A stretch of 64,000 nucleotides of DNA from Deltaproteobacteria bacterium (GTDB lineage Bacteria > Myxococcota_A > UBA9160 > SMWR01): NCBI GenBank assembly GCA_032128375.1, contig JAQBGU010000135.1, positions 7,213-71,212 of the forward strand, in the 5' to 3' direction. The translations under genes and the position numbers were made by a program. Every line of letters starts with the position of its first letter. Position 1 is the first letter of the stretch. The notes below the pieces were generated by a model. It saw nothing but the letters and a program-made list of their open reading frames with translations. It searched no databases and had not been told where the DNA came from. Below, piece by piece: positions 23,359 to 38,917 of the stretch.

Positions 23359-24915
23359 TTAATGCAGCCGTCGTGGGTTCGAGTCTTGAACGGCGAGTTC
23401 CGGTGCGTCCAACAACTCTTTCCGTACCAGACGACCGTTGCGGTAGTGCGAGATTACCTCCACGTTTCCGTCGCCGTCGCTGTCCTCTTCGCTCCGGACT
23501 ACTTGGTCATTTTCGTCGTAGAAGAGTTCTACATTCGGCTCGCCATCCGCATCGAGGTCGCGGGTTTCGCGAAGCCTTCGCCCATCTTGATAGAAGCTGA
23601 TTGCATCGCGATACCCGTCATGGGTCGTATCCTGTTCGTGGCGTACCAGTTCGCCAGAGCGATAGAAGCTCCAGGTATCCACCGCGCCGTCTCCATCCGA
23701 GTCCGCACGCCGTCGAGCGATCGCACCTTGTTGGTATTCGGTCCACGTATCGATTGCGCCGGCCCCGTTGTTGTCCTCTTCCACGAGACGGATTTGATGC
23801 GACGCGACGTCGGTGTGGATGATCCGATCGACGTGGCCGTTGAAGTCCTCGTCGAGTTCCTCCCGCTCGATCTCGCCGTGATTGCGGTAGATCCACTGGT
23901 CGATTCGGCCATCGCTGTTGCGGTCCACGATGCCGTCGGCGATCGTCGAGTCAGAACTCGGATTGGCGGTCGCAGCGGAGTGATCCCTTGCGGGTACGCG
24001 GGGTGTGTTCGACGAACGCGATGGGATTGTCGAGTCGTGCGGGTCTTCGCGGTCTTTCCCCGGCCCGCGGCTCGGTAGATCGGGCGTCCGACGCAGCGCT
24101 TCGAGTTCGGCCGCGATCGACAGCCCATCGGTCGCGGCAAGAGACGCCGTGGTCAGCGTTGAGTCGGGCGCCAGTCCCTGGTGTGCGCTGTCCCTCTCTT
24201 GGCGCGCTTGGCGTTCGCTGAGTTCTTGCGACATGTTCTGAAGCGTCCGTTCCTCGTAGTTCTGCGCTCGGGGGGGCGGAGGCTGGGCCGACTGTGAGGT
24301 CGGATTGGGGGGTCGCGGTACCGCCGGACCCGGCTCCGGTTCGCCGACGATGGCTTCCTTCGCGAGCACGAACGGCGCGGCCGCGATCACCAGCGGCGCC
24401 GTCAAGTATTTCATGAACAGCGGGTCTTCGCGGATCGTGGTGTGTCGAGTGATGTCTTCGCGAGCGCCGCCTAGCATCGTCATGCCCGCATCGGGGTCGC
24501 TCTGTGGGGCCGGGGGTGGCTGATAGGCCGGCTGATACGAGGGTTGACCCTGGGGTTGCGTCGAGCGCGGATCCGCATTGGGCCGCCCGGGCGGGCCAGC
24601 GTACTGACTGCTTTGCCCGGATTGACCGTTGGGTCCGTTCGATTGCGAGGAGTAGGTCTGAGCAGCGGTGCTCCCCGGCGGCGGAGGCAGCGTGGGAAGG
24701 TTCGGCGCAGATTGTCCCGGGTAGATGATCGAGGCGCGGCTGCCGATATTCACGATCGGCGTTCGATCCAGGTCACGGTCGGAATGGCTATAGGCCATAC
24801 AGCCCCCAAGCGGAAGCAACGCAAGCGTCCCGAGCATGGCGGATCGGATCTGGCCTAGCCGTTTGGCACGGCGAGGTTGACGGGTAGCCTGCGAAGTAGT
24901 TCGACGGTTCGACAT
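23359..24915 (-). CDS. lipoprotein with a Pro/Gln-rich linker and about 7 C-terminal DxDxDG-type repeats
   Basis: Start re-set to MSNRRTTSQATRQPRRAKRLGQIRSAMLGTLALLPLGGC (lipobox LGGC; ATG 24915). The C-terminus has roughly 23-aa repeats such as DSDGDGAVDTWSFYRSGELVRHE and DSDGDGNVEVISHYRNGRLVRKE. Confidence 0.65.
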   Translation of the reverse strand: MSNRRTTSQATRQPRRAKRLGQIRSAMLGTLALLPLGGCMAYSHSDRDLDRTPIVNIGSRASIIYPGQSAPNLPTLPPPPGSTAAQTYSSQSNGPNGQSGQSSQYAGPPGRPNADPRSTQPQGQPSYQPAYQPPPAPQSDPDAGMTMLGGAREDITRHTTIREDPLFMKYLTAPLVIAAAPFVLAKEAIVGEPEPGPAVPRPPNPTSQSAQPPPPRAQNYEERTLQNMSQELSERQARQERDSAHQGLAPDSTLTTASLAATDGLSIAAELEALRRTPDLPSRGPGKDREDPHDSTIPSRSSNTPRVPARDHSAATANPSSDSTIADGIVDRNSDGRIDQWIYRNHGEIEREELDEDFNGHVDRIIHTDVASHQIRLVEEDNNGAGAIDTWTEYQQGAIARRRADSDGDGAVDTWSFYRSGELVRHEQDTTHDGYRDAISFYQDGRRLRETRDLDADGEPNVELFYDENDQVVRSEEDSDGDGNVEVISHYRNGRLVRKELLDAPELAVQDSNPRRLH

Positions 24916-25223
24916 CGCTGAAGTCCTCGGTCGCAAGGTGAAGTCATCAGCGCAGATGGGGTCATCGACGCGGATGGAGTCGTCCAGCCAAGACTGATGC
25001 AAGTTCCGTGCGCGCGAGCCCACTCGAATCGATGCGTCTTGAATCGGCGATACTTGTGAACAGTTGGACGAACACATGCATCTGAGTTGCGAACGAACTG
25101 CCACTTCGGGCTTATGCAGCTGGCGGGCAATTGGCGGAATGGCTGTACCCATTCGCACCGAAACGCCCGCGCGAATGATCAGGTTGACCCGAATGGATCG
25201 ATTCGAAGCGGCAATCGCGCTCG

Positions 25224-26237
25224 TCAGTCGAGGTTCGAGTGGGAACCCATCCGCCCGATTCCGACGGTCGCGCCAAAGCCCAGCGCGATCAGCGCCAGCG
25301 CTGATCCGGCCTCGCCCGCAGCAGGCGAGTACGCGACCTGGCGCCAGTCTTCGTGATCGATGCTCGCAAGGTTCTCGTCGGTGACGACCACACCCTTCAG
25401 GGTCTCACCTGCGACAGGAGCTTCAGCCCGTTGGAACGGCCACAGGCCCACGACTGCGCCGAGCAACAAGCCGAGCAGCGCACCCAGCGTCGCCTTGCGA
25501 TAGCGCAAGAGCAGCCACTTCAGCAGATTGCTGACCGCCACGACTCCCAACACAATCCCGATGCCCAGCGGAACGACGACCTTCATTGCGTCCAAAACGA
25601 GTGCGAGATCGCTGCCGGAGCCAGCGCCGTCGCCGAGCAGGCCCCGCTTCAGTTGATCGACGGTGCCGAGAATCGATTCGTATTGGCCCAGGATCAGCAG
25701 CAGGTAGCCGCCGCTGATTCCCGGCAGGATCATCGCAGAAGAAGCTGCCATGCCCGATAGGAAGATCAACGTCAGGCTGGCATCCTGCATCGAGCTGCCT
25801 GCTCCCCGGGTGAGCGTCATCAAAAGCATCAGAACGAAACCGCCTAGCGCGCCGAGTGCGAGCGAACCCGACATGGGGCGAGCCATTCGCCACACCAAGG
25901 GGACGCCACCGAGTGTCAACCCAATGAACAGGCTGTACATGATCCAGCGATGGTCGATGACGAGTCCCTTGACGGTTCCGGCGAGCAGCAGGATCGCAAG
26001 TGCCGCGCTGGCGACGATGGCTCCCAGCAGGATGATCGAGCGCGACCGAAAGCGCAGAGTGGTAACCTCGGCGATTCCCGAGATGAAGCCCGGGTAAACA
26101 CCAGCTGCCAACAACATCGTGCCGCCGCTGATTCCCGGCACCAGATTGGCGAGACCCATCAGAGTGCCACCGATCGCTCCGCGAACCAACAGCGAGAGCG
26201 GAGCGGTTTCGATGTCGTGGGATTCGGGCTCGTTCAT
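25224..26237 (-). CDS. DUF368 family membrane protein (polyprenyl-phosphate transporter family)
   Basis: The motif is duplicated: NLVPGISGGTMLLAAGVY and MILPGISGGYLLLILGQYE. The protein is polytopic. Start re-set to MNEPESHDIE (ATG 26237). Confidence 0.8.
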   Translation of the reverse strand: MNEPESHDIETAPLSLLVRGAIGGTLMGLANLVPGISGGTMLLAAGVYPGFISGIAEVTTLRFRSRSIILLGAIVASAALAILLLAGTVKGLVIDHRWIMYSLFIGLTLGGVPLVWRMARPMSGSLALGALGGFVLMLLMTLTRGAGSSMQDASLTLIFLSGMAASSAMILPGISGGYLLLILGQYESILGTVDQLKRGLLGDGAGSGSDLALVLDAMKVVVPLGIGIVLGVVAVSNLLKWLLLRYRKATLGALLGLLLGAVVGLWPFQRAEAPVAGETLKGVVVTDENLASIDHEDWRQVAYSPAAGEAGSALALIALGFGATVGIGRMGSHSNLD

Positions 26238-26353
26238 AGGGTCTCTCAGGCTGCTGTGTGTGCGCAGGACGCGGTACTGTAGCAGCGCATCGAGTGAGTG
26301 CATTCTCGAAAGCAGCAGATGTCCAGGGACATAGGAGCGTTGGGGGGACCGCC

Positions 26354-27061
26354 GTGTGCGGAAGATTCTCATTGATCGCCAATCCGGACGAATTGGCCGA
26401 ACACTTCAAGATCGACTTCGAGCCCGGTCTCGAATTCGCGCCAACGTGGGAACCTCGATTCAACGTCGCTCCCAGTCAGCCGGTCAAAACGGTGTATGTG
26501 CCGGACACGTCGGCGCAGCGCGCGGTCGTGGAACGGCGCTGGGGCCTGATCCCGTCGTGGGCGAAAGATCCGAAAATCGGCAACCGGCAAATCAACGCGC
26601 GCTCTGAAACGCTGGCCGAAAAGCCGGCGTTTCGGCAAGCGCTCGAGCAGCGACGCTGCCTGGTCGCCGCGGATGGCTTCTACGAGTGGTCGGGGCCGCC
26701 GCGTTCCAAACAGCCCTACTACATTGCGCTGGACGACCAGGCAATCTTCGGCTTCGCGGGACTCTGGGAGCGCTGGCGCAACCCCGAAGGCCTCGAAGTG
26801 GAAAGCTGCACGGTGATCACTGCGGCAGCCAATTCGCTGCTTGGCGAGCTGCATTCGCGCATGCCGGTGATCTTGGATCCCGAGCAATACGAGGCGTGGT
26901 TGGATCCGTCGAGTCAGACCGCGGCCGAGTTGCTGGCGCTGCTCCGTTCGCATCGTTGCGACGCGCTGCGCTACTACCCGGTGAGCTATCGCGTCAACAA
27001 CGTCGCATACGATGATCCCGCTTGCCTCGAACCGGTCGAAGCCCAGCCGACGCTATTTTGA
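26354..27061 (+). CDS. SOS response-associated peptidase (SRAP/YedK family)
   Basis: A GTG at 26354 gives the obligatory N-terminus M-CGRFSL (catalytic Cys2). The family motifs follow: RFNVAPSQ, WGLIPSWAKD, NARSET, RRCLVAADGFYEW. Confidence 0.88.
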   Translation: MCGRFSLIANPDELAEHFKIDFEPGLEFAPTWEPRFNVAPSQPVKTVYVPDTSAQRAVVERRWGLIPSWAKDPKIGNRQINARSETLAEKPAFRQALEQRRCLVAADGFYEWSGPPRSKQPYYIALDDQAIFGFAGLWERWRNPEGLEVESCTVITAAANSLLGELHSRMPVILDPEQYEAWLDPSSQTAAELLALLRSHRCDALRYYPVSYRVNNVAYDDPACLEPVEAQPTLF

Positions 27062-27149: not shown

Positions 27150-27419
27150 ATGGGAGACCAACGTGTGGGCAAGACCGCTGCGTTACCGCGCTGGGCCCCG
27201 GTAGTCCGGCGAGTATTGCTGGGTGCGATCGGTGTGCTGTTCGTCATCTCGATTCCGTGGTATCGCGATGGGACCGAGCAGTCACGATGGTTCGGACTTC
27301 CGGATTGGGTGACGGTCGCGCTGGTCTGCTATGCGGCCGTCGCGGTGCTGAACTCGGCGGCCTGGATACTCACCGATATCTCGGATGGTGAGGACGATCG
27401 GCCGGGCACCTCCCGATGA
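27150..27419 (+). CDS. small two-TM membrane protein (DUF3311-like) coupled to the symporter
   Basis: 89 aa with two hydrophobic helices and an IPWYRD...WFGLPDW pattern. Its stop overlaps the symporter ATG (ATGA at 27416..27419). Confidence 0.6.
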   Translation: MGDQRVGKTAALPRWAPVVRRVLLGAIGVLFVISIPWYRDGTEQSRWFGLPDWVTVALVCYAAVAVLNSAAWILTDISDGEDDRPGTSR

Positions 27420-28924
27420 GCTTCGGCGAAATGGGGGTCGCCGGCCTCATGGTGTACCTCATTGCGCTGAGCGGAATCGCGCTCGCAGCAGCGCGCGCGA
27501 GGCAGAGCGACGCTCCATCGGACCACTTCCTGGCCGGGCGCGATCTCGGTGTCTTTGTGCTGTTTATGACACTGTACGCGACCGCTTACAGCGGCAACTC
27601 GCTGCTGGGCTATCCGGGCGAAGCTTACCGGCGCGGTTTCTCGTGGATTATGGCGACCGGCTTCATGATGTCGATCGTCGTGGTATTTCACCTGTTGGTG
27701 CCGAAGTTGCGCCCGGTCGCCGTTCGCGAGAATTTTGTAACGCCCGGCGATTGGGTTCGCTTCCGGTTCCGCGGCGAGCCCGCATCACGCGCGTTGTTGA
27801 CGGGTGTTGCCGCGTTGATGAGCTTGGCGCTGGCGAATTTCCTGTTCGCGCAGCTCAAAGCAATGGGCGAAATGGCGGAGCAGGTGACAGGCGGCCTGAT
27901 TTCCTACGAGATTGGGATCGTCGTGCTGGCGGCCATGATCCTATTCTACGAGACGCTCGGTGGTATGCGCGCCGTTGCCTGGACCGATGCCTTGCAGGGC
28001 ATCTTGATGCTGGTCGGGCTGGCCGCGCTACTGAGTTGGCTATTGAACGCGTCGGGTGGCCTGGAGTCGCTGACGACGGGCATTCTCGAAGTTCGCCCCC
28101 ATGCTGGAGATGTTCCGGACGCCACCGAACTTGCGAATTGGTTCAGCACGATCCTGCTGCTGGGGCTGGCGAGCGTAATCTACCCACAGGCGATCCAGAG
28201 AATCTATGCGGCCCGAAGCGGAACCGTGCTGAAGCGCTCCTTCGCGTTGATGACCTTCATGCCGCTGACCACGACGTTGGTCGTAACGCTGATCGGTCTG
28301 GCCGCGATCACCCGTCTGCAAGGGCTGGGAACGCTAGAGGCGGACCGGGTGATGCCACTGTTGCTGGGCCAGTGGGCCAGCTCGGGCGGGGTTGGGGCGA
28401 TCGCTGCAATGGTGGTTTTTCTGGGCGCCCTCGCCGCAATCATGTCGACAGCGGACTCGGTCCTACTCTCGCTCGGGTCGATAGCGGCGGAGGATCTGGT
28501 CGGGAAGGCGCACGATGACCCCGATGCGACACGATTGGGTAAGCGCATCGCCACGGCCTCAATCGTCGCAATCGCAGGCTTGGCCATGCTGGCGCGCGAT
28601 ATCACGCTTTGGGGCCTGATCGAATTGAAGATGGAGCTGTTGATTCAGTGCGTGCCAGTGTTTCTGATTGCGATCCACTGGCCGCGGCTCCGCGCGCGCC
28701 CGGCTCTTATCGGTCTGGTCGTCGGGACGATCATCGCGGTCACCGGTGTGTTCCTGGGCTCGAAGCGGATCGGAGGAGTGCACATCGGAGTGATCGGCTT
28801 GACGGTCAATGCGTTGATTGCGTGTACCGGGTCGCTCGGCAAAGGACCCCCCAACGAACCCCGATCCGTCGAAAGTCGGACAGCGGAGGAGGCCGTCTCT
28901 GGCCAGCTCCGTGCTCCCCGCTGA
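27416..28924 (+). CDS. sodium:solute symporter (SSS) family transporter
   Basis: 502 aa, polytopic. The N-terminal region DHFLAGRDLGVFVLFMTLYATAYSGNSLLGYPGEAY is typical of the SSS family. Confidence 0.88.
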   Translation: MSFGEMGVAGLMVYLIALSGIALAAARARQSDAPSDHFLAGRDLGVFVLFMTLYATAYSGNSLLGYPGEAYRRGFSWIMATGFMMSIVVVFHLLVPKLRPVAVRENFVTPGDWVRFRFRGEPASRALLTGVAALMSLALANFLFAQLKAMGEMAEQVTGGLISYEIGIVVLAAMILFYETLGGMRAVAWTDALQGILMLVGLAALLSWLLNASGGLESLTTGILEVRPHAGDVPDATELANWFSTILLLGLASVIYPQAIQRIYAARSGTVLKRSFALMTFMPLTTTLVVTLIGLAAITRLQGLGTLEADRVMPLLLGQWASSGGVGAIAAMVVFLGALAAIMSTADSVLLSLGSIAAEDLVGKAHDDPDATRLGKRIATASIVAIAGLAMLARDITLWGLIELKMELLIQCVPVFLIAIHWPRLRARPALIGLVVGTIIAVTGVFLGSKRIGGVHIGVIGLTVNALIACTGSLGKGPPNEPRSVESRTAEEAVSGQLRAPR

Positions 28925-28955
28925 TCCCAAGTTTCGGATCAGGGGGCAGCGCACT

Positions 28956-31154
28956 TCAACGTGTCTGTGGCGCCGGCAAATCGACGTACGCGCGGCCGGC
29001 GCGATAGTCCTCGAGGCGGCGCCGAATATCCTCGGCCAGATTCGCGTTCTGGTCGCTATCGGCGCTGATTGCGGCTTGCTCAGCAACCCGTGTCGCCTGT
29101 TCGAAATGCCCAGCGGTGGCGTGTGCGGCCGCCAACGTGTCCAGCAGATCCGCGCTGCGAACCTCGTGCGAAAGAGATTCCATAGCGAGCGCCAACGCCT
29201 CCTCGCCGTCCGCTCGGGTGGCACCGGGTCGCGTTGCGAGTAGCCAAGCCAGGTTATTGGATACCGGGTGCCAACCCGGTGAGAGCTCTAGCGCGATTCG
29301 ATAGTGCTCGATGGCTTCGCTCACCCGCCCGAGTTCGCTTGTCGCCTGTCCCAGCCCGAATTCAACCTCGATCGTATTCAATCCATTTCGCTGCGCGTCG
29401 GTCAGAAAGGTGAGCGCGCGCGCCGGTTCATTCATGCGCAACAGCACAAACCCGAGGTTGGCCGCAGCCTCCGCCCAGGCGGGCCGTGCGGCCAGCGCCA
29501 TCTCATACTCCGACACGGCTTGCTCTAGAGCTCCGGTTTGAGCCAGCGCTTGCCCCAGCAGCCCGTGCAGATGTGCGAACCCCACGTTTCGCTGCGCGCG
29601 TTGCGCCAGTCGCAGATGCTCGACGGCTTCCGCGCCGCGGTTGAGATCGATGAGTGCCGAGGCCAGGTTCGCGTGGGCGCGCGGGTGATTGGGCGCCAGG
29701 CGCAGCGCGGCCTGGTAATGGCCGATTGCCGCCTCGGGCTCATGGCGCGTCAGGAGCAAGTCGCCAAGCGTCACCCTGGGATCGGGCCAGCGGGGCTTGA
29801 TTCGAATCGCTTCGCGCACGTGGGCTTCCGCTGCGTCGAGATCGCCGGATTCGATCAGCTCCACGGCAAGACCGTTTTCGGCCAAGAAATTCTCTTGGGT
29901 GACAGCGATCGCCCGTTCATACAGCGCGAGCGAATCTCGCCAGTGCGCCAGCTGCGACCGCGTCGCGAAACTGAGCGAGATGATCGCAAGCAGCCCCGAA
30001 GCGATTCCGAGCCATCTCGGCAAGGGTGTCCACGCGACCATCATCGCGACCCCGATCAGGGGGAGATACATGTAGCGGTCAGCGCGTGCTTGCATGCCCG
30101 CTTGAACCACGCCGATCACGGGTACTAGCGTGATTGCGAACCACAACGAACCAACGAGTAGCTGCGGCCGCGAAGTTGCCAATCGAATGGCAACGCTGAA
30201 CGAGACCACCGACAACACCGCACCGACCCACCACTGGCTGGGTACTGCGAGCAGATGCGGATAAAAGACCGCGAGGTCGGTCGGCCAAAAACTCGCGAAC
30301 GCATACCAGCGATAGGAGTCGAGAGCAGTCGTCAGGCGCACCACCAGCGGCAGCAGGTCGCCGTGACTCATTGCGCCACTCTCGCGCTGAACCGCGAGTG
30401 TGACGACACTCGCTGCAACGGCGAGTGCGATCAGCGGAAGTTTATCGAGTACCGCGTCCATCAACGCCGCGCTTTCTGGCCGGCCGAGGCTCCCGTCCCG
30501 ACGCAGTCTGCGCGCCGGCCAATAGTCGAGTAGAAAGAGCGCGAGCGGCAGGGTTACGACCACGGGCTTGGCGAGCAGGCCCAGAGCAAAGCACACCAGC
30601 AGCGCGACATACCGCAGGCGCCTACCACCACCCGGTGGAGCGCGCAGATAACTCGCGTATGCCCACATCGATAGCATCCAGAACAAGCCGCTCAACGTGT
30701 CCTTGCGCTCGGTCGCCCACGCCACCGATTCGACATGCAGTGGATGAACCGCGAAGACCAGCGCAACGAACGCGCTCGGACCGCGGGTGCCACTGAGTCG
30801 AGTGAGCGCGAGAAACAGCACGGCGCTGCTCACCGCATGCAGTCCGACATTGGTCAGATGGTGGCCGGTGGGTTCGAATCCGTAGCACAGGACATCGAGA
30901 TGGAGCGAAAGCCACGTCAACGGAATCCAGTTGGCCTCATACGGTGTCGAGAACGCCTGCCACACCCGCTCCCAATCGAGCGCGCTGCGTAGCTGCGGAT
31001 TCTCGACGATGTAGATGAGGTCGTCGTAGCTGACGAACGCGTGGTGTCGGACTGGCCAGTACAAGACCAGCGGCAACAGCGCGACGGCCATTGCAAGCAG
31101 CAGGTCGCGGTACGAGAGGCTGGCTGAATCAAAGCAGTCGGCGTGTGATGTCAC
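28956..31154 (-). CDS. TPR-repeat membrane protein, PMT/TMTC-like (N-terminal GT-C-like membrane domain plus C-terminal TPR array)
   Basis: The N-terminus reads LYWPVRHHAFVSYDDLIYIVENPQLRS, followed by about 10 TM segments. The C-terminal TPR repeats include AIGHYQAALRLAPNHPRAHANLASALIDL. A GTG at 31154 overlaps the upstream gene's stop (GTGA); the tracked 812-aa ORF is over-extended. Confidence 0.75.
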   Translation of the reverse strand: MTSHADCFDSASLSYRDLLLAMAVALLPLVLYWPVRHHAFVSYDDLIYIVENPQLRSALDWERVWQAFSTPYEANWIPLTWLSLHLDVLCYGFEPTGHHLTNVGLHAVSSAVLFLALTRLSGTRGPSAFVALVFAVHPLHVESVAWATERKDTLSGLFWMLSMWAYASYLRAPPGGGRRLRYVALLVCFALGLLAKPVVVTLPLALFLLDYWPARRLRRDGSLGRPESAALMDAVLDKLPLIALAVAASVVTLAVQRESGAMSHGDLLPLVVRLTTALDSYRWYAFASFWPTDLAVFYPHLLAVPSQWWVGAVLSVVSFSVAIRLATSRPQLLVGSLWFAITLVPVIGVVQAGMQARADRYMYLPLIGVAMMVAWTPLPRWLGIASGLLAIISLSFATRSQLAHWRDSLALYERAIAVTQENFLAENGLAVELIESGDLDAAEAHVREAIRIKPRWPDPRVTLGDLLLTRHEPEAAIGHYQAALRLAPNHPRAHANLASALIDLNRGAEAVEHLRLAQRAQRNVGFAHLHGLLGQALAQTGALEQAVSEYEMALAARPAWAEAAANLGFVLLRMNEPARALTFLTDAQRNGLNTIEVEFGLGQATSELGRVSEAIEHYRIALELSPGWHPVSNNLAWLLATRPGATRADGEEALALAMESLSHEVRSADLLDTLAAAHATAGHFEQATRVAEQAAISADSDQNANLAEDIRRRLEDYRAGRAYVDLPAPQTR

Positions 31155-32587
31155 TCCGCTTCCGATTGGCCGTCTGCGCCTGTGGCGCTGTCTTGTGCCT
31201 TCTCCTCCAGATAGCCGAGCGCGTGGAGTTGTTGCTGTTCGTCCCTGGAGAGCCGTTGGCGCAGTTCCGGGTGTCCAGGCTGCAGATTGTTTCGAAACCA
31301 CTCGAGTTTGGCGCGCAGTCTGTCGTGGATATCCGGTGCATCGAAGCGGCGCTCGGGGCCGTCGGGCGGGAGATGGTAGAGCTCGGTCTTCCACTGGGAA
31401 CCGACTCGCGTCAGTACGAGTTTATTCGGGCCCTCGACAATTCCGAAGCGTTTCCCCGTTCCGGAATCGAGTGTTGTCAGGTAGGGCTCGCTGGGTTGCC
31501 GCTGTTCCCTCGGAAGCATCAGGTCGCGGCCATCCGCATCGCTGGGCGCACCGATCGTCAGACCCAGTAGTGTCGGGTACAAATCGATCAGACTCGCGAT
31601 ATCCAAGCGAATTTCAGGTTCGACACCGGGCGCGCGAATCGCCAATGGGACCCGGACGAGCGGGTCAGAGAGGCGCTCGCCGTGCGCGAACCAATAGTTC
31701 TGCTCGCCGAGCGACTCACCGTGGTCCGCGGTAAACACGACCACGCAATTCTGTTTCGAGTAGTGCTCCTCCAGGGCTGTCAACAACCGGCCGACCTCCT
31801 CATCGAGGTATGCGATCTCACCGTCGTAGCCCGCACGATAGAATGCGACGCCGCGCGCGTCGCCGATTTGCTGATACCTGGGCAGCAACCCGCGACCGCC
31901 GCGACCGGTCCGTTCGGGGAGAACGCGGTCGCCATCAGGCGCAGTGCGCTCTACGGCGAGAAAACGCTCGCGATAGCCGTCCGGGGGTGTGTAGGGGCCG
32001 TGCGGGTCCTGATAGTGAACCCACAAAAAGGATCGGACGCTGGGATCCTTGAACCATCCGTCCATCACCGCGATCGCCGCATCTGTGGTGCTCGAGGCGA
32101 TCCGTTCGGGCCAGTGTCGCGTGACTTCGGTCTGGGGGAGAGCATCGTCGTAGTGGTCGAAACCGACGGCGAGGCCCGAATTGCGACGCAGTACGAAATT
32201 GCTGACCACGGCGGCTGTCCGCCAACCGTTGTCGTGGAGCACAGAAGCCAAAGTGGGAATCGTGGACCGTAAGGCGGAGCGATTGCTGACGATTCCGAGT
32301 TCTTCGGGATACTTCCCCGTCATCAACGAACTGACCGAAGGCAGTGTGTACGGCGCCGGCGCATACACGCGGCTGAAATACTGGCCTTCGGCGGCCAGCG
32401 CATCGATGTGGGGGGTGAGTCCCAGTGTGCTGCCGCCCGCACCGATGCGGTCGGCACGCAGCGTGTCCACGGTGATCAGGATCAACACGCGAGGCGCGGG
32501 GGAACCGAACCCACAGCAGAACGAAACGATTGAGAGCGCCACGCAAACGGCGGCGCACAGTGTCTGAAGTTCGGGCCGGCGTCGCAT
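31151..32587 (-). CDS. sulfatase-fold (alkaline phosphatase superfamily) protein with Thr at the nucleophile position
   Basis: LILITVDTLRADRIG matches the metal-binding N-terminal motif. At the sulfatase signature position the sequence is PYTLPSVSSLMTG instead of C/S-x-P-x-R. The start is set at MRRRPELQTLCAAVCVALSIV (ATG 32587). Confidence 0.8.
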   Translation of the reverse strand: MRRRPELQTLCAAVCVALSIVSFCCGFGSPAPRVLILITVDTLRADRIGAGGSTLGLTPHIDALAAEGQYFSRVYAPAPYTLPSVSSLMTGKYPEELGIVSNRSALRSTIPTLASVLHDNGWRTAAVVSNFVLRRNSGLAVGFDHYDDALPQTEVTRHWPERIASSTTDAAIAVMDGWFKDPSVRSFLWVHYQDPHGPYTPPDGYRERFLAVERTAPDGDRVLPERTGRGGRGLLPRYQQIGDARGVAFYRAGYDGEIAYLDEEVGRLLTALEEHYSKQNCVVVFTADHGESLGEQNYWFAHGERLSDPLVRVPLAIRAPGVEPEIRLDIASLIDLYPTLLGLTIGAPSDADGRDLMLPREQRQPSEPYLTTLDSGTGKRFGIVEGPNKLVLTRVGSQWKTELYHLPPDGPERRFDAPDIHDRLRAKLEWFRNNLQPGHPELRQRLSRDEQQQLHALGYLEEKAQDSATGADGQSEAE

Positions 32588-32826
32588 CACGGGTCGGAAA
32601 GCAGCGTAGCACGAGGGGACGAGACCGAAGCCGGATAGCGGAGGACTGAGAATGGTTGGTCGAAATCCCGGCGCGCGAGCCGGGCCCGTTCCCGGCCCGA
32701 GGGTTCGGGTGTGTTCGTGGGTTCGGCACAGCCACTGGTAAAAGTCGGGTCGCGGGGTTCGGTCTTGGGTTCTGCTGCTAAGCTCCGTCCGGCGCGCATG
32801 GTTGTTATCAATATGAAGGGGACCTG

Positions 32827-33615
32827 ATGGCTCAATCGATAACTCGTTCGTCCCGACTGGCTGTGACCACGCTGATGGTCGCATTGCTCGGGACCGGATG
32901 CACGGTGATCGAGGACGGCGAGGTGGGGGTATCGAAGAGCTTTGGCGCGATTTCCGATACGCCGGTCGGACAGGGCATCGTGATTCAGGTCCCGGTGGTT
33001 CGCACGGTCGAGACCTGGAACGTGAAGCTGCAGGAACTGAAGGAGACCGCGCAGGTGCCGTCTTCTGAGGGCCTGATCGTCGGTCTCGATACGTCGCTGC
33101 TGTTTCGGGTTACGCCCGATAGAGCGCCCCAGATCCGCAAGACCATCGGGATCAACTATGTCGAGGGCTTGATTCGGCCGTACTTTCGCAGCGCGCTGCG
33201 CGATACCGTCAGTGGATACCCGGTCAAGACGGTGTATACCGAAGCGGGCCGCAAGGAGATCGCAGCCAGTATCAAGAATTTTCTGATGGACAGCATGGCC
33301 AAGGAAGGCATCACCATCGTCGATGTGCTGCTGCGCGACGTCAAGCTTCCCACGCGCTTCAAGGAGAGTATCGAGGCGAAGCTGACCGCAGAGCAACGCG
33401 TCCAGCAGAAGCAGTTCGAACTCGAACAGGCCGTGAAGGATGCCGAGATCGAAGTGGCACGCGCGAAGGGTGCGGCGCAGGCCCAGGAGATCGTTCGGTC
33501 GACTCTATCGGATTCTTATCTGCAGTATCTGTGGATCAAGACGCTGAACGAGAATCCGAATGTCATCTACGTCGCGACCGAGGCCAACCTGCCGCTGTTC
33601 AAGCAGTCGAAATAG
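32827..33615 (+). CDS. SPFH/band-7 (prohibitin-like) domain lipoprotein
   Basis: Lipobox LLGTGC, then EDGEVGVSKSFGAI ... VETWNVKLQE ... SSEGL.VGLDTSLLFRV and a C-terminal coiled coil. Confidence 0.85.
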   Translation: MAQSITRSSRLAVTTLMVALLGTGCTVIEDGEVGVSKSFGAISDTPVGQGIVIQVPVVRTVETWNVKLQELKETAQVPSSEGLIVGLDTSLLFRVTPDRAPQIRKTIGINYVEGLIRPYFRSALRDTVSGYPVKTVYTEAGRKEIAASIKNFLMDSMAKEGITIVDVLLRDVKLPTRFKESIEAKLTAEQRVQQKQFELEQAVKDAEIEVARAKGAAQAQEIVRSTLSDSYLQYLWIKTLNENPNVIYVATEANLPLFKQSK

Positions 33616-33818: not shown

Positions 33819-35198
33819 CTAGTCCCGTCGGCGCATCAGATAGAGAACCCGGTCCGACCCCGGAATCGGCGTTCGATCCTCGGTTTCGAAACGGCGAGCG
33901 AATGCGGCTTCGAAATCCTGTGGGGTGTAGTTGTCGAACACGTCGGTTCGGTTCGCGAGCAGCAGCTGTGCCTTCGGGTCACTCTTGGGCACGAACTCGA
34001 TGATCAGCCGGCCGGACAGACGCGCGAACCAATCGGCGACGCGGCTCAGCGGCACGTTGTTCGAAATGGCCAGGTGGTGAATCAACGCGAGAGCCATGAC
34101 CAGGTCCGCTGGACCCCGATCGACGAGCGACGCGCGCTCCTCGTGTGCCCAGCCGAGGCTCGGGCTGGGATTCGAAAGGTCGAGTAGTAGCGGCAGCAAA
34201 CGCGTCTCACGTTCACGTCGCATCTTGCGATAATTGCGGTCGACACACGCAGGGTCGACATCGAACGCCAGCGTCAGCATTCCGCGCTGGGCCGCGAGCC
34301 GGCTGTATTCGCCGGTATTCGCGCCCAGGTCCCACACACTCGCCGGCTGTGCGCGATCGAGGTAAGTCGCGACGATCTGGTGCTTCTGCTCTTCGGCCGC
34401 TTCGGAATAGCTATCGCCTTCGTAGTAGTCGGCCCATTCGGTTCCCGCGGCATCCCAGCGGAGCTTTTCGACGGCTGTCTCGAGCGCTGTCAGCAGGTTC
34501 GCCAGTGATTTCTTCGGAACGGGTCGAACCGTCACTTTCTCGGTCGCTGTCTGGTAGCGATTCTGGTAGCCCGCGTGCATTCGGATGTGCATGAATAAGT
34601 GGATATTGAGCCAGGCACGCCGGGGCAGCAGCGTACGCGCGAGATCGAGCGGTATGCCGTCGAGGTTCACACGCAGCAATTTCGCGAGCCGAATGTCGCA
34701 ATAAGACATCAGCGCCAGCGGCGCCAGAAAATGTTGGCAGAACTGGCGGTATCCGACCCAGGGAGTATCTGGCTGGTAGATTTCGAACGACAACGTATCG
34801 ATGAACACGGGTGCGCCGCGGTGGAACTGGACATTGTAGGCACTAGCGTCCTTCAGCGTCATTCCGAACCGAAGAGCCGCGTGTTGGATCTGTAGTGTCA
34901 GCAGTGCCGCCGCTCGGAGTTGGCTGAACGACCACTCGTACGGGTAGGACACGAAGTCCACCCGTTCGGGTTTCAAGGTGAGGTAGTCGTCGAGCTCGAC
35001 GTCCGGTTCCGGCTCGTCGACGCTCTGGTGCGGAATCAACAGCCTGCGTTCGACCAACTCATCGTACAGCCCTGATTTCATCAGGCATTCGTAATCGTCG
35101 GCGTAGCTGCGCCGGACTCGCCGGAACAACTCACCGTCGCGCTCGAACAGATACCCGCTGGGATCGCGAAAGGACGCGCCCAGGGAGCGTTCATTCAT
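33819..35198 (-). CDS. SAM-dependent methyltransferase (NoeA-like family)
   Basis: The N-terminus is FRDPSGYLFERDGELFRRV, and the C-terminal half carries VWDLGANTGEYSRLAAQRGMLTLAFDVDP (motif I). Confidence 0.75.
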   Translation of the reverse strand: MNERSLGASFRDPSGYLFERDGELFRRVRRSYADDYECLMKSGLYDELVERRLLIPHQSVDEPEPDVELDDYLTLKPERVDFVSYPYEWSFSQLRAAALLTLQIQHAALRFGMTLKDASAYNVQFHRGAPVFIDTLSFEIYQPDTPWVGYRQFCQHFLAPLALMSYCDIRLAKLLRVNLDGIPLDLARTLLPRRAWLNIHLFMHIRMHAGYQNRYQTATEKVTVRPVPKKSLANLLTALETAVEKLRWDAAGTEWADYYEGDSYSEAAEEQKHQIVATYLDRAQPASVWDLGANTGEYSRLAAQRGMLTLAFDVDPACVDRNYRKMRRERETRLLPLLLDLSNPSPSLGWAHEERASLVDRGPADLVMALALIHHLAISNNVPLSRVADWFARLSGRLIIEFVPKSDPKAQLLLANRTDVFDNYTPQDFEAAFARRFETEDRTPIPGSDRVLYLMRRRD

Positions 35199-35660: not shown

Positions 35661-37964
35661 ATGACGAAGAGCGCGGATCGGACAGGGCAGGGGTCGCGCA
35701 TCGGCGCGATGGTGGGATTGTTCGCGGCGGCCATCGCTGTTCGCGCGCTACCAGCGCCGACTGTTCTGCTCGGCGATCGCGTTCAGCCGTTTGGCGGCGA
35801 CGCGTTCTACCACCTGCGCCGAATCGCGTATTCGATCGAGCAATTCCCTCATGTACTCGAATTCGATCGCTACGTGAACTTCCCGACAGGCGCGATTGCG
35901 ATCTGGACACCGGTTTTCGACTGGCTGATCGCCGCGCTGGCGATCTGCCTCCGAGCCGAGCCGGCATCCCTCGAGATGGAACGAATCGCGGTCTGGGTTC
36001 CGCCGGTTCTTGGAGCAGCGACCGTCGTGGTGCTGTATCGACTGGCGGCGCGCACCTTTGGCGAGCCGATCGGGCGCACGGCTGGTGCGCTTTTGTGCAT
36101 CAGTTCCGCGCACTTCTGGTACTCGCAGATCGGCTTCGTCGACCATCACGTTGCGGTCGCGCTCGTCACTACGCTGCTGCTGGGTCGCGCGATCGCGTAC
36201 CTGGACGCGCAGTCGGAACCTGCCCCGGCATGGCCGTTGGGGCTCGCGCTCGGCGCAGCATTGTGGATCTGGCCCGGTACGCTACTTCACGTCGGCATCA
36301 TCGAAGCCGCACTGCTGATCGCGCTCTTGACGGAGGCCGACGCATCCGCGGCCGCTGCACGGCGTTTCACAAACGTGCAGTGCATTGCACTGCTGTTGAT
36401 GCTGCCCTCCGGTGTCACAAACAGCTGGCCGCAATGGGGGGCCTTCAGCCCGGTCGTGCTCTCACTGTTTCAGCCCTGGCTATTCGCCACATTGACACTG
36501 TTTGGGTTCGGGTGCAGCGCACTGTGGCTCCACACGCGGCTCGGCGCGTCCGTCGGGAGGCGCGCACTCAGCGCTGCAGCAATCGGCTTCACATTGTTGC
36601 TGTGTAGCCTTCTTGCGATTCCAGAATTGTGGATCGGTGCGCACGATGCGTGGCAGTGGTTCGGAAAGACGGAGGTTTTTCAGGCCCTCGTCAGTGAATC
36701 ATTGCCTCTGTTGGAGCTCGATGGCGATTTCAGCACCCAGGTGGCCTCGAGTCGCCTGTCCTACTTCGTATTTCTGTCTCCGATCGCGCTGCTCTGGGCG
36801 GCGACCAGCGCCTGGCGAGGAGAACGTGAGCGCGGACGATTGTTGCTGGTCGGCTGGACCGCGGTGCTGCTGGCCGCGACGCTGTGGCAGAAGCGCTTCT
36901 TCAATACCTCCTCGGTCGGCCTGGCTCTGCTGATGGCATGGACACTAGCCGGCGTACATCGCGCATGGACCGCGCGAGCGGGTGGCCACTCGCGGCTCGC
37001 GAGCGCGGTCGTCGTATCTGTCACCGCGCTGCTGTTGCTTCCGAGCGTCGCGAGTTTTCGCGGCTTCCTGCCGAACTGGCGCGGCGACGGTACGATCGCA
37101 GGTTCTCGCCTGCAACTCGCGCAGAATGTCGCGATTGCGACTTCGGAATATCTGCGTCGAGAAACCCCGACGACTTCCGGATGGCTGGACGCCGATGCTT
37201 GGCCCGAGTATTCCGTGATGGGTCCGTGGCCGATCGGGCACGTGATCGAATACGTCGGACGCCGACCGACAGTGACTGACGGATTCGGCGACGACCTGGG
37301 GCCCGAGAACTTCGAACGAGCGGCACGTTACTATGCTGCTGAAGAGCCAGAGGCACTCGCGATCGCAGAACGACTCGGTGTTCGGTATGTAATCGCGCAG
37401 CGCAGCGCAACTTTTCTGGGGAGAGAACCCGGCGCCGCCAGTATGCTGACCGCTTTGTTTGTTCGCGATGGGTCTGAGAGGCCGCTCCCTTCGACCCGAG
37501 ATGCCGGCGCTATTGCACCACCTTCGCCGACGACCTTCCCGGCACTGCATCGCCACCGGCTCATCTACGAATCCGCGCCTCCCGGAGAACGGAGTCCCGA
37601 GCGCGAGTCGTTGTTCAAGCTGTTCGAGATCGTGGTTGGGGCCGAGATCGTGGGTCGCGCGACGCCTGGTGGGCGTGTAAGCGCCGCTGTGGAGCTGAAG
37701 ACGAATCGGAAACGCGATTATCTCTATTTCACGAGCACGACTGTTCGGGAAGATGGCGGCTACACGCTACGCCTCCCGTATGCCAATGGAGGGCCAAACA
37801 AGCGCGGTGTCGTCGGGGTAGGCATGCATTACACGATCGCGTGTGGGGATGCGAAGCGTCCCATCGGCGTGACGGAGCGCGACGTTCAGTCCGGAGCGAA
37901 GCTCCGCGTACCGGAACTGGACTGTCAGTCAGGAATGAAAAAGAGCGATGCTTGGACGCAATAA
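35661..37964 (+). CDS. STT3/AglB-like oligosaccharyltransferase-family membrane protein (divergent)
   Basis: The first loop FGGDAFYHLRRIAYSIEQFP resembles the archaeal AglB D-x-YYHLR motif. There are about 13 TM segments and then a soluble C-terminal domain. At the WWDYG position the sequence reads MGPWPIGHVIEYVGRRPTVTDGFG. Confidence 0.6.
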   Translation: MTKSADRTGQGSRIGAMVGLFAAAIAVRALPAPTVLLGDRVQPFGGDAFYHLRRIAYSIEQFPHVLEFDRYVNFPTGAIAIWTPVFDWLIAALAICLRAEPASLEMERIAVWVPPVLGAATVVVLYRLAARTFGEPIGRTAGALLCISSAHFWYSQIGFVDHHVAVALVTTLLLGRAIAYLDAQSEPAPAWPLGLALGAALWIWPGTLLHVGIIEAALLIALLTEADASAAAARRFTNVQCIALLLMLPSGVTNSWPQWGAFSPVVLSLFQPWLFATLTLFGFGCSALWLHTRLGASVGRRALSAAAIGFTLLLCSLLAIPELWIGAHDAWQWFGKTEVFQALVSESLPLLELDGDFSTQVASSRLSYFVFLSPIALLWAATSAWRGERERGRLLLVGWTAVLLAATLWQKRFFNTSSVGLALLMAWTLAGVHRAWTARAGGHSRLASAVVVSVTALLLLPSVASFRGFLPNWRGDGTIAGSRLQLAQNVAIATSEYLRRETPTTSGWLDADAWPEYSVMGPWPIGHVIEYVGRRPTVTDGFGDDLGPENFERAARYYAAEEPEALAIAERLGVRYVIAQRSATFLGREPGAASMLTALFVRDGSERPLPSTRDAGAIAPPSPTTFPALHRHRLIYESAPPGERSPERESLFKLFEIVVGAEIVGRATPGGRVSAAVELKTNRKRDYLYFTSTTVREDGGYTLRLPYANGGPNKRGVVGVGMHYTIACGDAKRPIGVTERDVQSGAKLRVPELDCQSGMKKSDAWTQ

Positions 37965-38197: not shown

Positions 38198-38286
38198 GCT
38201 CCACGACAAGAGCAAACCCGGCGAGAGCCGGGGACGCAAAGCCAGTGCCCAGCCTCGGGAATCCGAGTCGGGTCGAACGGCTGCCG
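38198..38286 (+). promoter_or_regulatory. c-di-GMP-I (GEMM-I) riboswitch-like aptamer
   Basis: CCACGACAAGAGCAAACC-[CGGC GAGA GCCG hairpin, GNRA loop]-GGGACGCAAAGCC-[second hairpin CUCGG GAAU CCGAG with extended stem]. This parallels the V. cholerae Vc2 aptamer as I recall it (CACGCACAGGGCAAACC-AUUCGAAAGAGU-GGGACGCAAAGCC...). It ends immediately before the AAAGGAG RBS of the 38300 gene. Confidence 0.75.
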
Positions 38287-38299
38287 AAAGGAGTTGTGC

Positions 38300-38917
38300 A
38301 TGACCGCTCCCCGTCGACTGACAACCGCTTTCCTCGTCGCGGCGATCTCCGTGGCTTCCTGTGGTGCCACGCCTTTCGCTGAACTGGCGAGTACGAGCGA
38401 GAATCCTCCGCTCGGTTATTCGCCATCCGCGCTCAGCGGGGACGCGCTCGCTGCGTCTCGTGTGTTGGGAGGGCTGAACACCGGGTTGCTTCCCGATGAA
38501 GTCGCGAGGCTCGGCGTCGCAATCGTCATGGAGTCGCGACGAGCTGGGATTCCGATGGAGTTGGTGCTGGCGCTGATCCAGGTCGAAAGTAGTGGCAACG
38601 CCTTCGCGGTGTCCGGTGTCGGCGCGATCGGGCTCATGCAGCTTCGCCCGAGCACGGCCGAGGAAGTCGCTGGCCGACTCGGAATCCGCTGGATGGGCGC
38701 TGCAACATTGTTCGAGCCGGTGACGAACGTTCGGCTGGGCGTCGAGTATCTCCGCCAATTGATCGAGCACTACGACAGCGTTTCGATCGCACTCGCCGCC
38801 TACAACTGGGGGCCGGGAACGATCGGGAAGAGGCTGCGGCTGGGCGAAGCGATCCCGGCCGGCTACTCGGATAAAGTCATGGCAAAATATCGCCGACCCC
38901 TGCACCGCGCGATCTAG
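38300..38917 (+). CDS. lytic transglycosylase (SLT domain) lipoprotein
   Basis: Lipobox SVASC. Catalytic motif LIQVESSGNAFAVSGVGAIGLMQL ... AYNWGPG. The ATG at 38300 is 6 nt after AAAGGAG. Confidence 0.9.
   Translation: MTAPRRLTTAFLVAAISVASCGATPFAELASTSENPPLGYSPSALSGDALAASRVLGGLNTGLLPDEVARLGVAIVMESRRAGIPMELVLALIQVESSGNAFAVSGVGAIGLMQLRPSTAEEVAGRLGIRWMGAATLFEPVTNVRLGVEYLRQLIEHYDSVSIALAAYNWGPGTIGKRLRLGEAIPAGYSDKVMAKYRRPLHRAI

Follow-up and report, generated by a model that had tools for sequence, protein, structure and literature searches.

Several described pathways join a GT-C glycosyltransferase with an enzyme of the alkaline phosphatase (AP) superfamily, including ArnT/EptA (lipid A), LtaS/YfhO (lipoteichoic acid), PIG-M/V/B with PIG-N/O/G (glycosylphosphatidylinositol), and PglL/PptA (Neisseria pilin). 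In these systems, a single acceptor close to the membrane is decorated by both enzyme classes on the non-cytoplasmic side, and the phosphotransferase owns a membrane domain. We know of none among them in which the enzymes are fused or overlapped at their start and stop codons, or which is built on a sulfatase-like two-domain scaffold. Here, we analyzed a gene pair of an uncultured marine myxobacterium, located in a 64,000-nucleotide stretch of contig JAQBGU010000135.1 (Deltaproteobacteria bacterium, assembly GCA_032128375.1; hereafter the window). The first gene (gene 1) encodes a sulfatase-fold protein with threonine (Thr) at the nucleophile position, and the second (gene 2) encodes a membrane protein resembling the TMTC glycosyltransferases. 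An earlier note on this DNA had suggested that the pair is an envelope-modifying two-enzyme unit; this was found to be partly supported, the note being correct in what it observed and right in outline in its interpretation, but over-specific with regard to the enzyme family and the target. A search of the literature returned no account of a Thr-type sulfatase-like lipoprotein family or of an overlapped or fused GT-C/AP-superfamily pair. The two genes share the minus strand, and together they span exactly positions 28956..32587 of the window:

31151..32587, minus strand: gene 1, an open reading frame (ORF) for a 478-amino-acid (aa) Thr-type sulfatase-fold (AP-superfamily) protein, predicted to be a periplasmic lipoprotein.
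28956..31154, minus strand: gene 2, an ORF for a 732-aa protein, predicted to be a TMTC-type GT-C glycosyltransferase with a C-terminal tetratricopeptide repeat (TPR) arm.
31151..31154, minus strand: GTGA junction, in which the stop codon of gene 1 is shared with the GTG start of gene 2 (31154-31152), giving a 4-nt overlap.

Gene 1 was found to score far higher with Pfam PF00884 (Sulfatase; E-value 4e-46, 158 bits) than with PF01663 (Phosphodiest; E-value 7e-17, 62.5 bits against a cut-off of 23, residues 35-292). Its best sequence matches among solved structures were formylglycine sulfatases, choline sulfatases, and phosphonate monoester hydrolases (PMH), with an E-value of 1e-24 by pairwise HMMER and 1e-38 by family profile; the matched structures include PDB 6hhm, 6fny, 4upk, and 9koq. 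When the AlphaFold2 (AF2) model of gene 1 (pLDDT 86) was searched by Foldseek, the top 50 matches were all S1 sulfatases (including choline sulfatases) or PMH at TM scores of 0.62-0.70, and the resemblance to the sulfatase fold takes in the C-terminal subdomain as well. The Mn-dependent arylsulfatase EfAS (9koq) was considered as a non-formylglycine relative and set aside, as it carries Cys61. Conservation was read from three alignment sets: (i) 30 sequences; (ii) 75 genome loci; and (iii) 150 cluster representatives <50% identical to one another, of which 142 were aligned. The following features were located in gene 1:

32513..32587, minus strand: signal peptide ending at Cys25 (lipobox cysteine), with Cys25 invariant in 30/30 sequences.
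32447..32476, minus strand: ITVDTLRADR (residues 38-47), the first metal-ligand strand with Asp41, aligning to VDDLRAE of 6hhm.
32333..32353, minus strand: nucleophile motif P-Y-T81-L-P-S-V85 replacing C/S-x-P-x-R, from alignment to 6hhm and choline sulfatase.
32282..32284, minus strand: Asn102, 21 residues past the nucleophile, invariant in 75/75 loci and present in 120/141 aligned representatives.
31991..32023, minus strand: WVHYQDPHGPY with His191, Asp194, and His196, all three invariant.
31679..31729, minus strand: ADHGESLGEQNYWFAHG with the Asp288/His289 metal ligands, Glu291, Ala301, and His302, aligned to SDHGDMLGERGLWFKM of choline sulfatase.
31211..31228, minus strand: L-H-A-L-G-Y motif closing the catalytic domain, conserved.

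The metal motif and the altered formylglycine signature had been read by hand in the earlier note, and both readings were borne out. The ITVDTLRADR residues aligned with the first metal-ligand strand of 6hhm, and pairwise as well as profile HMMER alignments placed T81-L-P-S-V85 onto the C-A-P-S-R of 6hhm and onto Cys54 (C-A-P-A-R) of choline sulfatase, with no shift in the hand alignment and with Val in the place of Arg. Because the nucleophile position is an invariant Thr, formylglycine formation in the gene 1 product is excluded on sequence grounds, as had been claimed. In common with the S1/choline sulfatases and PMH, which provide its best sequence and fold matches, gene 1 has the Asp...Asp-His metal ligands and the P-H-x-P histidine (aligned with His196); Asp194 and His191 are peculiar to the Thr family, and Thr42 stands where sulfatases carry Asp or Gln. 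The S1 fold and the Asp...Asp-His ligands are therefore present, whereas the C/S-x-P/A-x-R signature and the Lys/His set are not: the Cys/Ser-derived formylglycine and the Arg of the S1 sulfatases are replaced by Thr and Val, the Lys/His of G-K-x-H by Asn/Val, and the Lys of W-F-K (the second sulfate-binding Lys, K324 in EfAS) by Ala301 followed by an invariant His, as W-F-A301-H302 aligned onto this segment. The assignment of Asn130/Val132 to the sulfate-binding Lys/His pair (K110/H112 in EfAS) is by position only, the alignments ending at residue 127. Gene 1 differs further from the S1 sulfatases by the lipobox Cys that is invariant in its family and by the C-terminal LxALGY motif. Of the EfAS catalytic set, which consists of D20, Q21, C61, R65, K110, H112, H220, D311, H312, and K324 (PMC12421950), only Asp41, His196 (the H220 equivalent), and Asp288/His289 are kept. 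A sulfatase that still operates, with an unmodified or differently modified Thr, would agree with the overall S1 fold and the PF00884 match; however, neither of the sulfate-binding Lys residues is kept, nor is the Arg of C-x-P-x-R, and the SulfAtlas authors exclude Thr-bearing PF00884 proteins, such that this reading is scarcely credible. These authors noted Thr in roughly one in two seed sequences of PF00884 and state that such proteins, being unable to form formylglycine, are not to be counted as sulfatases (PMC5066984). Thr within PF00884 is in itself already known, and the unusual point in gene 1 is a Thr inside a soluble S1 sulfatase architecture, and not in that of LtaS/EptA.

The earlier note had regarded Thr as characteristic of phosphotransferases such as LtaS and EptA/MCR and not of sulfatases; the exclusion of a sulfatase stood, but Thr was found to be equally typical of the hydrolases NPP and SPAP/PafA (PMC3145672). 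The kinship with LtaS or EptA/MCR did not hold. LtaS, EptA(MCR), and OpgB share with gene 1 the Thr nucleophile at the superfamily position, and LtaS and EptA work on the outer side of the cytoplasmic membrane, as predicted for the gene 1 product. However, LtaS and EptA have an N-terminal polytopic (5-transmembrane [TM]) domain, whereas only the 25-residue signal peptide precedes the catalytic domain of gene 1, and their first metal ligand is Glu in contrast to the Asp of gene 1. The EptA/MCR models match gene 1 only at residues 253-303 (the D-H-G-E-S-L-G-E...H-G segment), and the NCBIfam scores of ~10-30 bits are far below the cut-offs of 500-1250 (e.g., NF028537, 30.7 vs 500; LtaS, 19.9 vs 970). 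By sequence and fold, gene 1 groups instead with the S1/choline sulfatases and PMH. Likeness to NPP and SPAP (PF01663) was more extensive: gene 1 passes the gathering threshold and shares both the D-x-L-R-A-D first strand and the T-x-P-S...T-G-x-Y-P-E-x-x-G-I-x-x-N segment with its Asn at +21, a residue also found 21 positions past the nucleophile in choline sulfatase. The NPP nucleophile, which we take to be Thr90, would give the same Thr+21 spacing to Asn111. In SPAP, Thr89 and Asn110 have this spacing, and the Asn hydrogen-bonds a non-bridging phosphoryl oxygen; Asn111 of NPP likewise hydrogen-bonds a phosphoryl oxygen (PMC3145672). The order Asp194/His196...Asp288-His289...His302 in gene 1 mirrors the two-metal ligand order of SPAP and NPP, although the putative second-site ligands are spaced differently from those of both (D-x-H, with a His 13 residues past the D-H pair) and the C-terminal subdomain of gene 1 is sulfatase-like. 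Overall, the active-site changes fit those expected of phosphoryl-transfer enzymes.

Thr81 was invariant in all three alignment sets (30/30, 75/75, and 142/142 aligned sequences), and position 85 was V, I, L, M, H, C, or Y, never Arg. Since Thr81 is retained in every aligned relative, gene 1 belongs to a deep family and does not carry a local mutation. The other catalytic positions (Asp41, His191, Asp194, His196, Asp288, His289, Glu291, and His302) were invariant or nearly so across the family; D41, T42, L43, R44, and D46 were invariant in the sets of 30 and 75 sequences, as were D288, H289, E291, and H302 in the 75 loci and the cluster representatives. A search of 1.84 billion representatives recovered 12,407 proteins (50%-identity clusters) at an E-value ≤1e-30, with the Thr state read in the best 150; altogether, Thr was confirmed in all ~250 sequences inspected. 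The label on homologues with a named source is "sulfatase" or "arylsulfatase A-like enzyme"; NCBI records that bear a name come from metagenome-assembled genomes (MAGs) of Myxococcota or Deltaproteobacteria. Six loci of 50-58% identity and the same synteny (L002, L004, L008, L011, L018, and L022) carry MAG labels of Opitutales, Gammaproteobacteria, or Spirochaetales, which looks like a binning or labelling error and not true phylogenetic spread.

With regard to location, the invariant Cys25 ends the signal peptide, is preceded by a hydrophobic stretch, and in the 30 sequences mostly follows a canonical L-x-[GAS]; the family is accordingly exported, probably with a lipid anchor. The [LIVMF]xx[LIVM]GY motif at the other end of the catalytic domain was detected in 75/75 members, including two F-variants and one cut by a contig end. 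Departures from the lipoprotein layout were found among the 150 representatives, in which ~19 (~13%) have a 135-250-aa N-terminal extension with 4-6 TM in the LtaS/EptA-type layout, and 8 have tandem double Thr domains. Three further proteins (P0288, P0289, and P0309; 1300-1550 aa) were observed to carry two Thr-type domains with a long TPR array in between, and in one more (P0336; 744 aa) a SAM-methyltransferase domain precedes the Thr-type domain in a single chain. Taken with the fusions described below, every architecture of the Thr family is predicted to anchor the catalytic domain to the cytoplasmic membrane, on its outer face.

Gene 2 was found to consist of ~420 aa of membrane helices followed by ~310 aa of TPR; its AF2 model (pLDDT 88) shows ~11-12 long helices between residues 15 and 406, with ~300 aa of TPR pairs after them. 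The closest described enzymes are the metazoan TMTC1-4 (protein O-mannosyltransferases; GT-C, CAZy GT105), in which a multi-pass membrane domain likewise precedes a non-cytoplasmic TPR arm. For comparison, the published alignment of the TMTC1-4 N-terminal domain was used (8 sequences, supplement of PMC7801869). The gene 2 family matched this alignment by hhalign at 99.5% probability (E-value 8e-23, 176 columns), confirming the TMTC-like assignment of the earlier note, with the match covering the first ~180-200 residues only; within it, the FVxDD loop, the PLT segment, HxxNxxLH, and FAVHPxHxE were co-aligned. Human TMTC3 alone gave 97.7%, and against the full-length protein the alignment ended at ~200 residues. 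Conserved features of gene 2 are as follows:

31020..31037, minus strand: F-V-S-Y-D44-D45 acidic motif in the first periplasmic loop, with F40, D44, and D45 invariant, aligning to FVxDD of TMTC1-4.
30717..30755, minus strand: FAVHPLHVESVAW motif, with H137, P138, H140, and E142 invariant, aligned to LLFAVHPIHTEAV of TMTC.
30060..30092, minus strand: QARADRYMYLP motif ahead of the last TM helices, with Q355, A358, D359, R360, Y361, Y363, and P365 invariant.
28959..29291, minus strand: C-terminal TPR module (NNLAWLLAT...LDTLAAA...RL.DYRAG), with N633, N634, L635, W637, and L671-A675 nearly invariant.

The TMTC proteins have a strongly conserved DD motif after TM1, and their topology is an N-terminus in the cytoplasm, 11 TM, and a TPR on the far side (PMC7801869). 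By analogy, the DD loop and TPR arm of gene 2 would lie on the periplasmic side, in the same compartment as gene 1. TMTC1-4 also have an A-[DE]-R-x-x-Y-x-P-x-x-G-like motif by their last helices; the resemblance of QARADRYMYLP to their AERVLYVPSMG is by eye only and lies outside the hhalign range. Of the PMT-type domain and TPR array that the earlier note had assigned, the array was recovered by Pfam (residues ~420-700), but the membrane domain of gene 2 itself had no Pfam or NCBIfam match even at an E-value ≤10 (including DUF1736 and PMT_2), and the PMT_2 threshold was reached (26-30 bits) only in homologues ~50% identical to gene 2. The hidden Markov model (HMM) of the membrane domain gave 0 matches to PDB sequences, and Foldseek of the full model against the PDB returned TPR proteins only, which is uninformative on this domain. 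Gene 2 differs from TMTC1-4 in that it is bacterial, lacks a DUF1736 or PMT_2 match of its own, and is coupled to an AP-superfamily enzyme. Nonetheless, the aligned motifs and the domain order identify it, at the sequence level, as a genuine TMTC-type GT-C glycosyltransferase with a TPR arm.

The strongest evidence that the two enzymes belong together came from single-chain fusions. In P0253 (983 aa), which was found as an identical sequence in four public sources (NCBI, JGI, ENA, and Logan), a TMTC-like membrane domain (hhalign 99.3%, 374 columns) and a short TPR stretch precede a Thr domain 49% identical to that of gene 1. In P0243 (918 aa; two members, three contigs), a PMT_2 membrane domain is joined to a Thr domain. 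A third arrangement, at locus L032, has the Thr domain, LRALGY, and then a TMTC-type C-terminal TPR module (HMM E-value 1e-31), and its next gene is TMTC-like with a 4-nt overlap; the LxALGY-type motif forms the boundary to the TPR module in the fusion proteins of L032 and L054d. At L007, a stand-alone TPR protein with the TMTC-type C-terminal module (E-value 9e-30) lies directly downstream of a Thr paralogue. The recurrent adjacency and the fusions show that the Thr and GT-C enzymes are linked in function, and to this extent the two-enzyme unit of the earlier note was upheld. The position of the Thr domain in these fusions, where other GT-C enzymes bear acceptor-binding domains, would also suit a non-catalytic binding or regulatory module that serves the glycosyltransferase as an acceptor-binding subunit. 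An enzyme-like fold has been proposed to act as a non-catalytic module in YejM/PbgA, and gene 1 has a weak NCBIfam YejM match (2e-4). Counter to this, all metal ligands and the nucleophile are invariant among sequences <50% identical, a pattern that marks a functioning active site, and we consider a non-catalytic role very improbable.

The stop/start overlap claimed for gene 1 and gene 2 was found to be real and conserved. Gene 1 extends from the ATG at 32587 to the TGA at 31153-31151, and its 478-aa homologues P0001-P0004 have the identical start Met; a longer ORF from ATG 32884 was rejected, since it would overlap the start of the divergent SPFH gene and the extension occurs in 0 homologues. 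The junction reads GCG GAG TGA. Both gene types overlap by 4 nt in at least eight further loci (L161, L001, L013, L021, L034, L040, L049, and L055), as GTGA, ATGA, or TTGA, and the overlap is retained down to ~45% identity. In public gene calls, gene 2 starts 21 codons past the GTG, at an ATG (P0121, 711 aa; also L080 and L161), which skips 31092..31154 (minus strand) and would cut off half of TM1 relative to all homologues. By comparison, P0122 (80% identical to gene 2) starts at the GTG-equivalent position, and in the orthologue L001 (73% identical) the downstream ATG is absent and the sole start before the conserved region is the GTG overlapping the stop, in a GGAGTGA context. Thus, the public start of gene 2 probably truncates the first TM helix and conceals the overlap. 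With the divergent SPFH gene (32827..33615) on one side and, on the other, a sodium:solute symporter gene (27416..28924) that converges on it, the pair has the appearance of a two-gene operon; a relative 94% identical (GCA_032125315.1) showed the same arrangement, as did a Logan contig with an identical gene 2. A promoter and terminator scan of 28700-33000 yielded nothing exceeding the shuffled background. Gene 1 and gene 2 are best read as a translationally coupled operon.

To determine how widely the pairing extends, neighbor genes were counted after removal of the Arg-rich spurious ORFs typical of GC-rich DNA. With a sensitive HMM, a TMTC-like ORF was detected within the 6-kb flanks of 26 of 79 Thr-family loci, being directly downstream on the same strand in 11, after a tandem second Thr copy in 4, and convergent in 4. 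The commonest other Pfam neighbor within 2.6 kb was PMT_2 (13/140 ORFs, with TMTC-like and spurious ORFs removed); tandem Thr paralogues (22 within 4 kb) and TPR or Sel1 proteins were also frequent. The coupling is real, yet restricted to part of both families, with co-conservation that is lineage-restricted and most paralogues of either family unpaired. A lineage-specific accident of gene order, in which the functions are unrelated and the 4-nt overlap reflects compact operon packing, was weighed in light of these counts. Myxococcota carry multiple copies of both of these large families, mostly unpaired, and L002 and L045 keep the synteny without a TMTC-like gene downstream, all as an accident would predict. 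Set against this are (i) the independent fusions with two GT-C types and with the TMTC-type TPR module, by which this explanation is already disfavored; (ii) the 26/79 loci and 13 PMT_2 neighbors, compared with a rough chance estimate of 1-4% per 12-kb span that is itself inferred and has no whole-genome basis; and (iii) the overlap kept down to ~45% identity. An accident is thus improbable. At three loci (L008, L019, and L023), Sel1-repeat proteins (E-value down to 1e-78), another TPR-like repeat partner, were observed directly downstream of Thr-family paralogues.

These features suggest how the two enzymes may work together on the periplasmic side of the inner membrane. The gene 1 product, exported and probably lipid-anchored, retains the sulfatase scaffold and metal site (Asp41, Asp288, and His289), has lost the sulfate-binding Arg, Lys, and His (now Val85, Asn130, and Ala301), and has gained Asn102, His191, Asp194, and His302. 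Catalysis would then be phosphoryl and not sulfuryl transfer, via a covalent phospho-Thr81 intermediate; most likely, a membrane lipid would donate a phosphate-linked substituent to an acceptor, with phosphodiester hydrolysis as a close alternative. Gene 2 may move a sugar from a polyprenyl-phosphate carrier onto a periplasmic acceptor, presumably held by the TPR arm and, by analogy with TMTC, most plausibly a protein Ser/Thr. The two enzymes would share this acceptor, lying close to the membrane, and the TPR module would be their common platform. Transfer is favored for gene 1 because the characterized membrane-tethered domains of the AP superfamily are transferases and the Thr family includes such architectures. 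That gene 1 transfers a phosphate-linked substituent, paired with sugar transfer by the GT-C enzyme on a shared periplasmic acceptor close to the membrane, is a tentative proposal to which we give just under an even chance. Lipid A or a glycan as the target is pure conjecture.

Several observations weigh against this proposal. The gene 1 product has no membrane domain of its own, a domain which to our knowledge is present in all characterized lipid-donor phosphotransferases of the AP superfamily. In sequence and in fold it is closest to soluble hydrolases, its own lipobox is atypical (S-F-C-C), and the putative second metal site at Asp194/His196/His302 is a candidate only. With respect to the pairing, ~50 of the 79 Thr-family loci have no TMTC-like gene within 6 kb, and in the syntenic loci L002 and L045 none lies downstream (in L002, a divergent PMT_2 gene is located upstream). 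Viewed from the other family, a Thr enzyme was upstream in only 1 of ~53 informative TMTC-like loci; among 80 metagenome TMTC-like loci, this was the closest one, L081.

Part of this evidence would be accounted for if gene 1 were instead a periplasmic hydrolase (a phosphodiesterase, phosphatase, or pyrophosphatase of the NPP, PafA, or PMH kind) working alongside GT-C enzymes, for example to trim a phosphate-linked group off the acceptor that they share, or to recycle the carrier by removing phosphate from a polyprenyl (pyro)phosphate by-product. In addition to the soluble relatives and the missing membrane domain, the PF01663 score (62 bits vs the cut-off of 23) and the Thr plus Asn+21 as in NPP and SPAP are what a hydrolase would be expected to show. 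The genomic context is also suggestive, as the neighbors include several GT-C types (TMTC-like, PMT_2, and an AglB-like oligosaccharyltransferase [OST]) whose only obvious common feature is the polyprenyl-phosphate carrier, and a gene resembling DUF368/undecaprenyl-phosphate translocases lies inside the conserved syntenic block; since the carrier is common to these different partners, a carrier-linked substrate stays in play. However, the ~13% of representatives with a 4-6-TM N-terminal domain and the GT-C fusions have the layout of transferases among characterized AP-superfamily enzymes, and fusion to an acceptor-binding TPR arm is hard to reconcile with carrier recycling. Moreover, we know of no undecaprenyl-pyrophosphate phosphatase in the AP superfamily. 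On balance, a hydrolase is a serious alternative that falls only a little short of transfer of a phosphate-linked substituent, which remains the preferred activity of gene 1.

Other features of the neighborhood were recorded in the window and in related loci:

35661..37964, plus strand: archaeal-type AglB/STT3 oligosaccharyltransferase (TIGR04154, 6.7e-93; AglB_L1 and AglB core domains), on a bacterial contig that is probably of Myxococcota.
33819..35198, minus strand: 459-aa methyltransferase (MT)-like protein, with a sub-threshold methyltransferase match only (PF13489, 21 bits).
25224..26372, minus strand: DUF368/VCA0040-like (undecaprenyl-phosphate translocase-like) membrane protein.
23359..25158, minus strand: 599-aa protein with a long Pro/Gln/Ser-rich segment and C-terminal repeated D-x-D-G-x-x-D motifs.
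38201..38288, plus strand: c-di-GMP-I riboswitch RF01051 (61 bits vs a gathering score of 35), 5 nt upstream of the next ORF.
38294..38917, plus strand: ORF for a 207-aa exported protein with lytic-transglycosylase (SLT) motifs.
L002 4207..5829, L003 4208..5860, L004 4113..5960, L013 3908..5563, and L015 1249..2931, all minus strand: copies of the PMT_2 gene in relatives.

A conserved block, in the order OST, MT-like, SPFH, Thr enzyme, TMTC-like, SSF, SRAP, and DUF368, was observed in L002, L010, L021, and L045, and OST-like genes were found near Thr-family paralogues in L003, L004, L016, L023, L028, L029, and L045. The MT-like protein is 61-66% identical in the syntenic loci L002-L013 and always lies between OST and SPFH, with an 82-aa ORF ahead of it in relatives. 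In syntenic relatives, a PMT_2 GT-C gene of ~540 aa is placed between the SPFH and Thr genes and is divergent from the latter; the window has 239 bp at this position. The 599-aa protein had weak matches to the Lsa25.6 adhesin and lanmodulin and none to a Pfam family, and the L161 orthologue of the 207-aa protein carries PF01464.

These results have implications for annotation as well as for envelope biology. For the Thr family, which may have thousands of members, annotation as "sulfatase" or "arylsulfatase A-like enzyme" is almost certainly mistaken, and this misannotation inflates the estimated sulfatase capacity in marine and sediment metagenomes. On a broader scale, it is possible, though we hold it with more reserve than confidence, that a large and undescribed sulfatase-fold clade switched to a Thr nucleophile and became a dedicated partner of GT-C enzymes, whether in the same operon, nearby or fused, forming a periplasmic "phospho-glyco" module that adds or edits a sugar and a phosphate-linked substituent on envelope proteins or lipids in Myxococcota and related phyla. 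The Thr family would exemplify a sulfatase scaffold re-tooled for phosphoryl transfer, which bears on nucleophile exchange in the AP superfamily. Furthermore, its linkage by fusion and operon to TMTC-like and PMT_2 enzymes offers a concrete handle on the function of the bacterial TMTC homologues and points to a sugar- and phosphate-linked envelope modification not described in Myxococcota.

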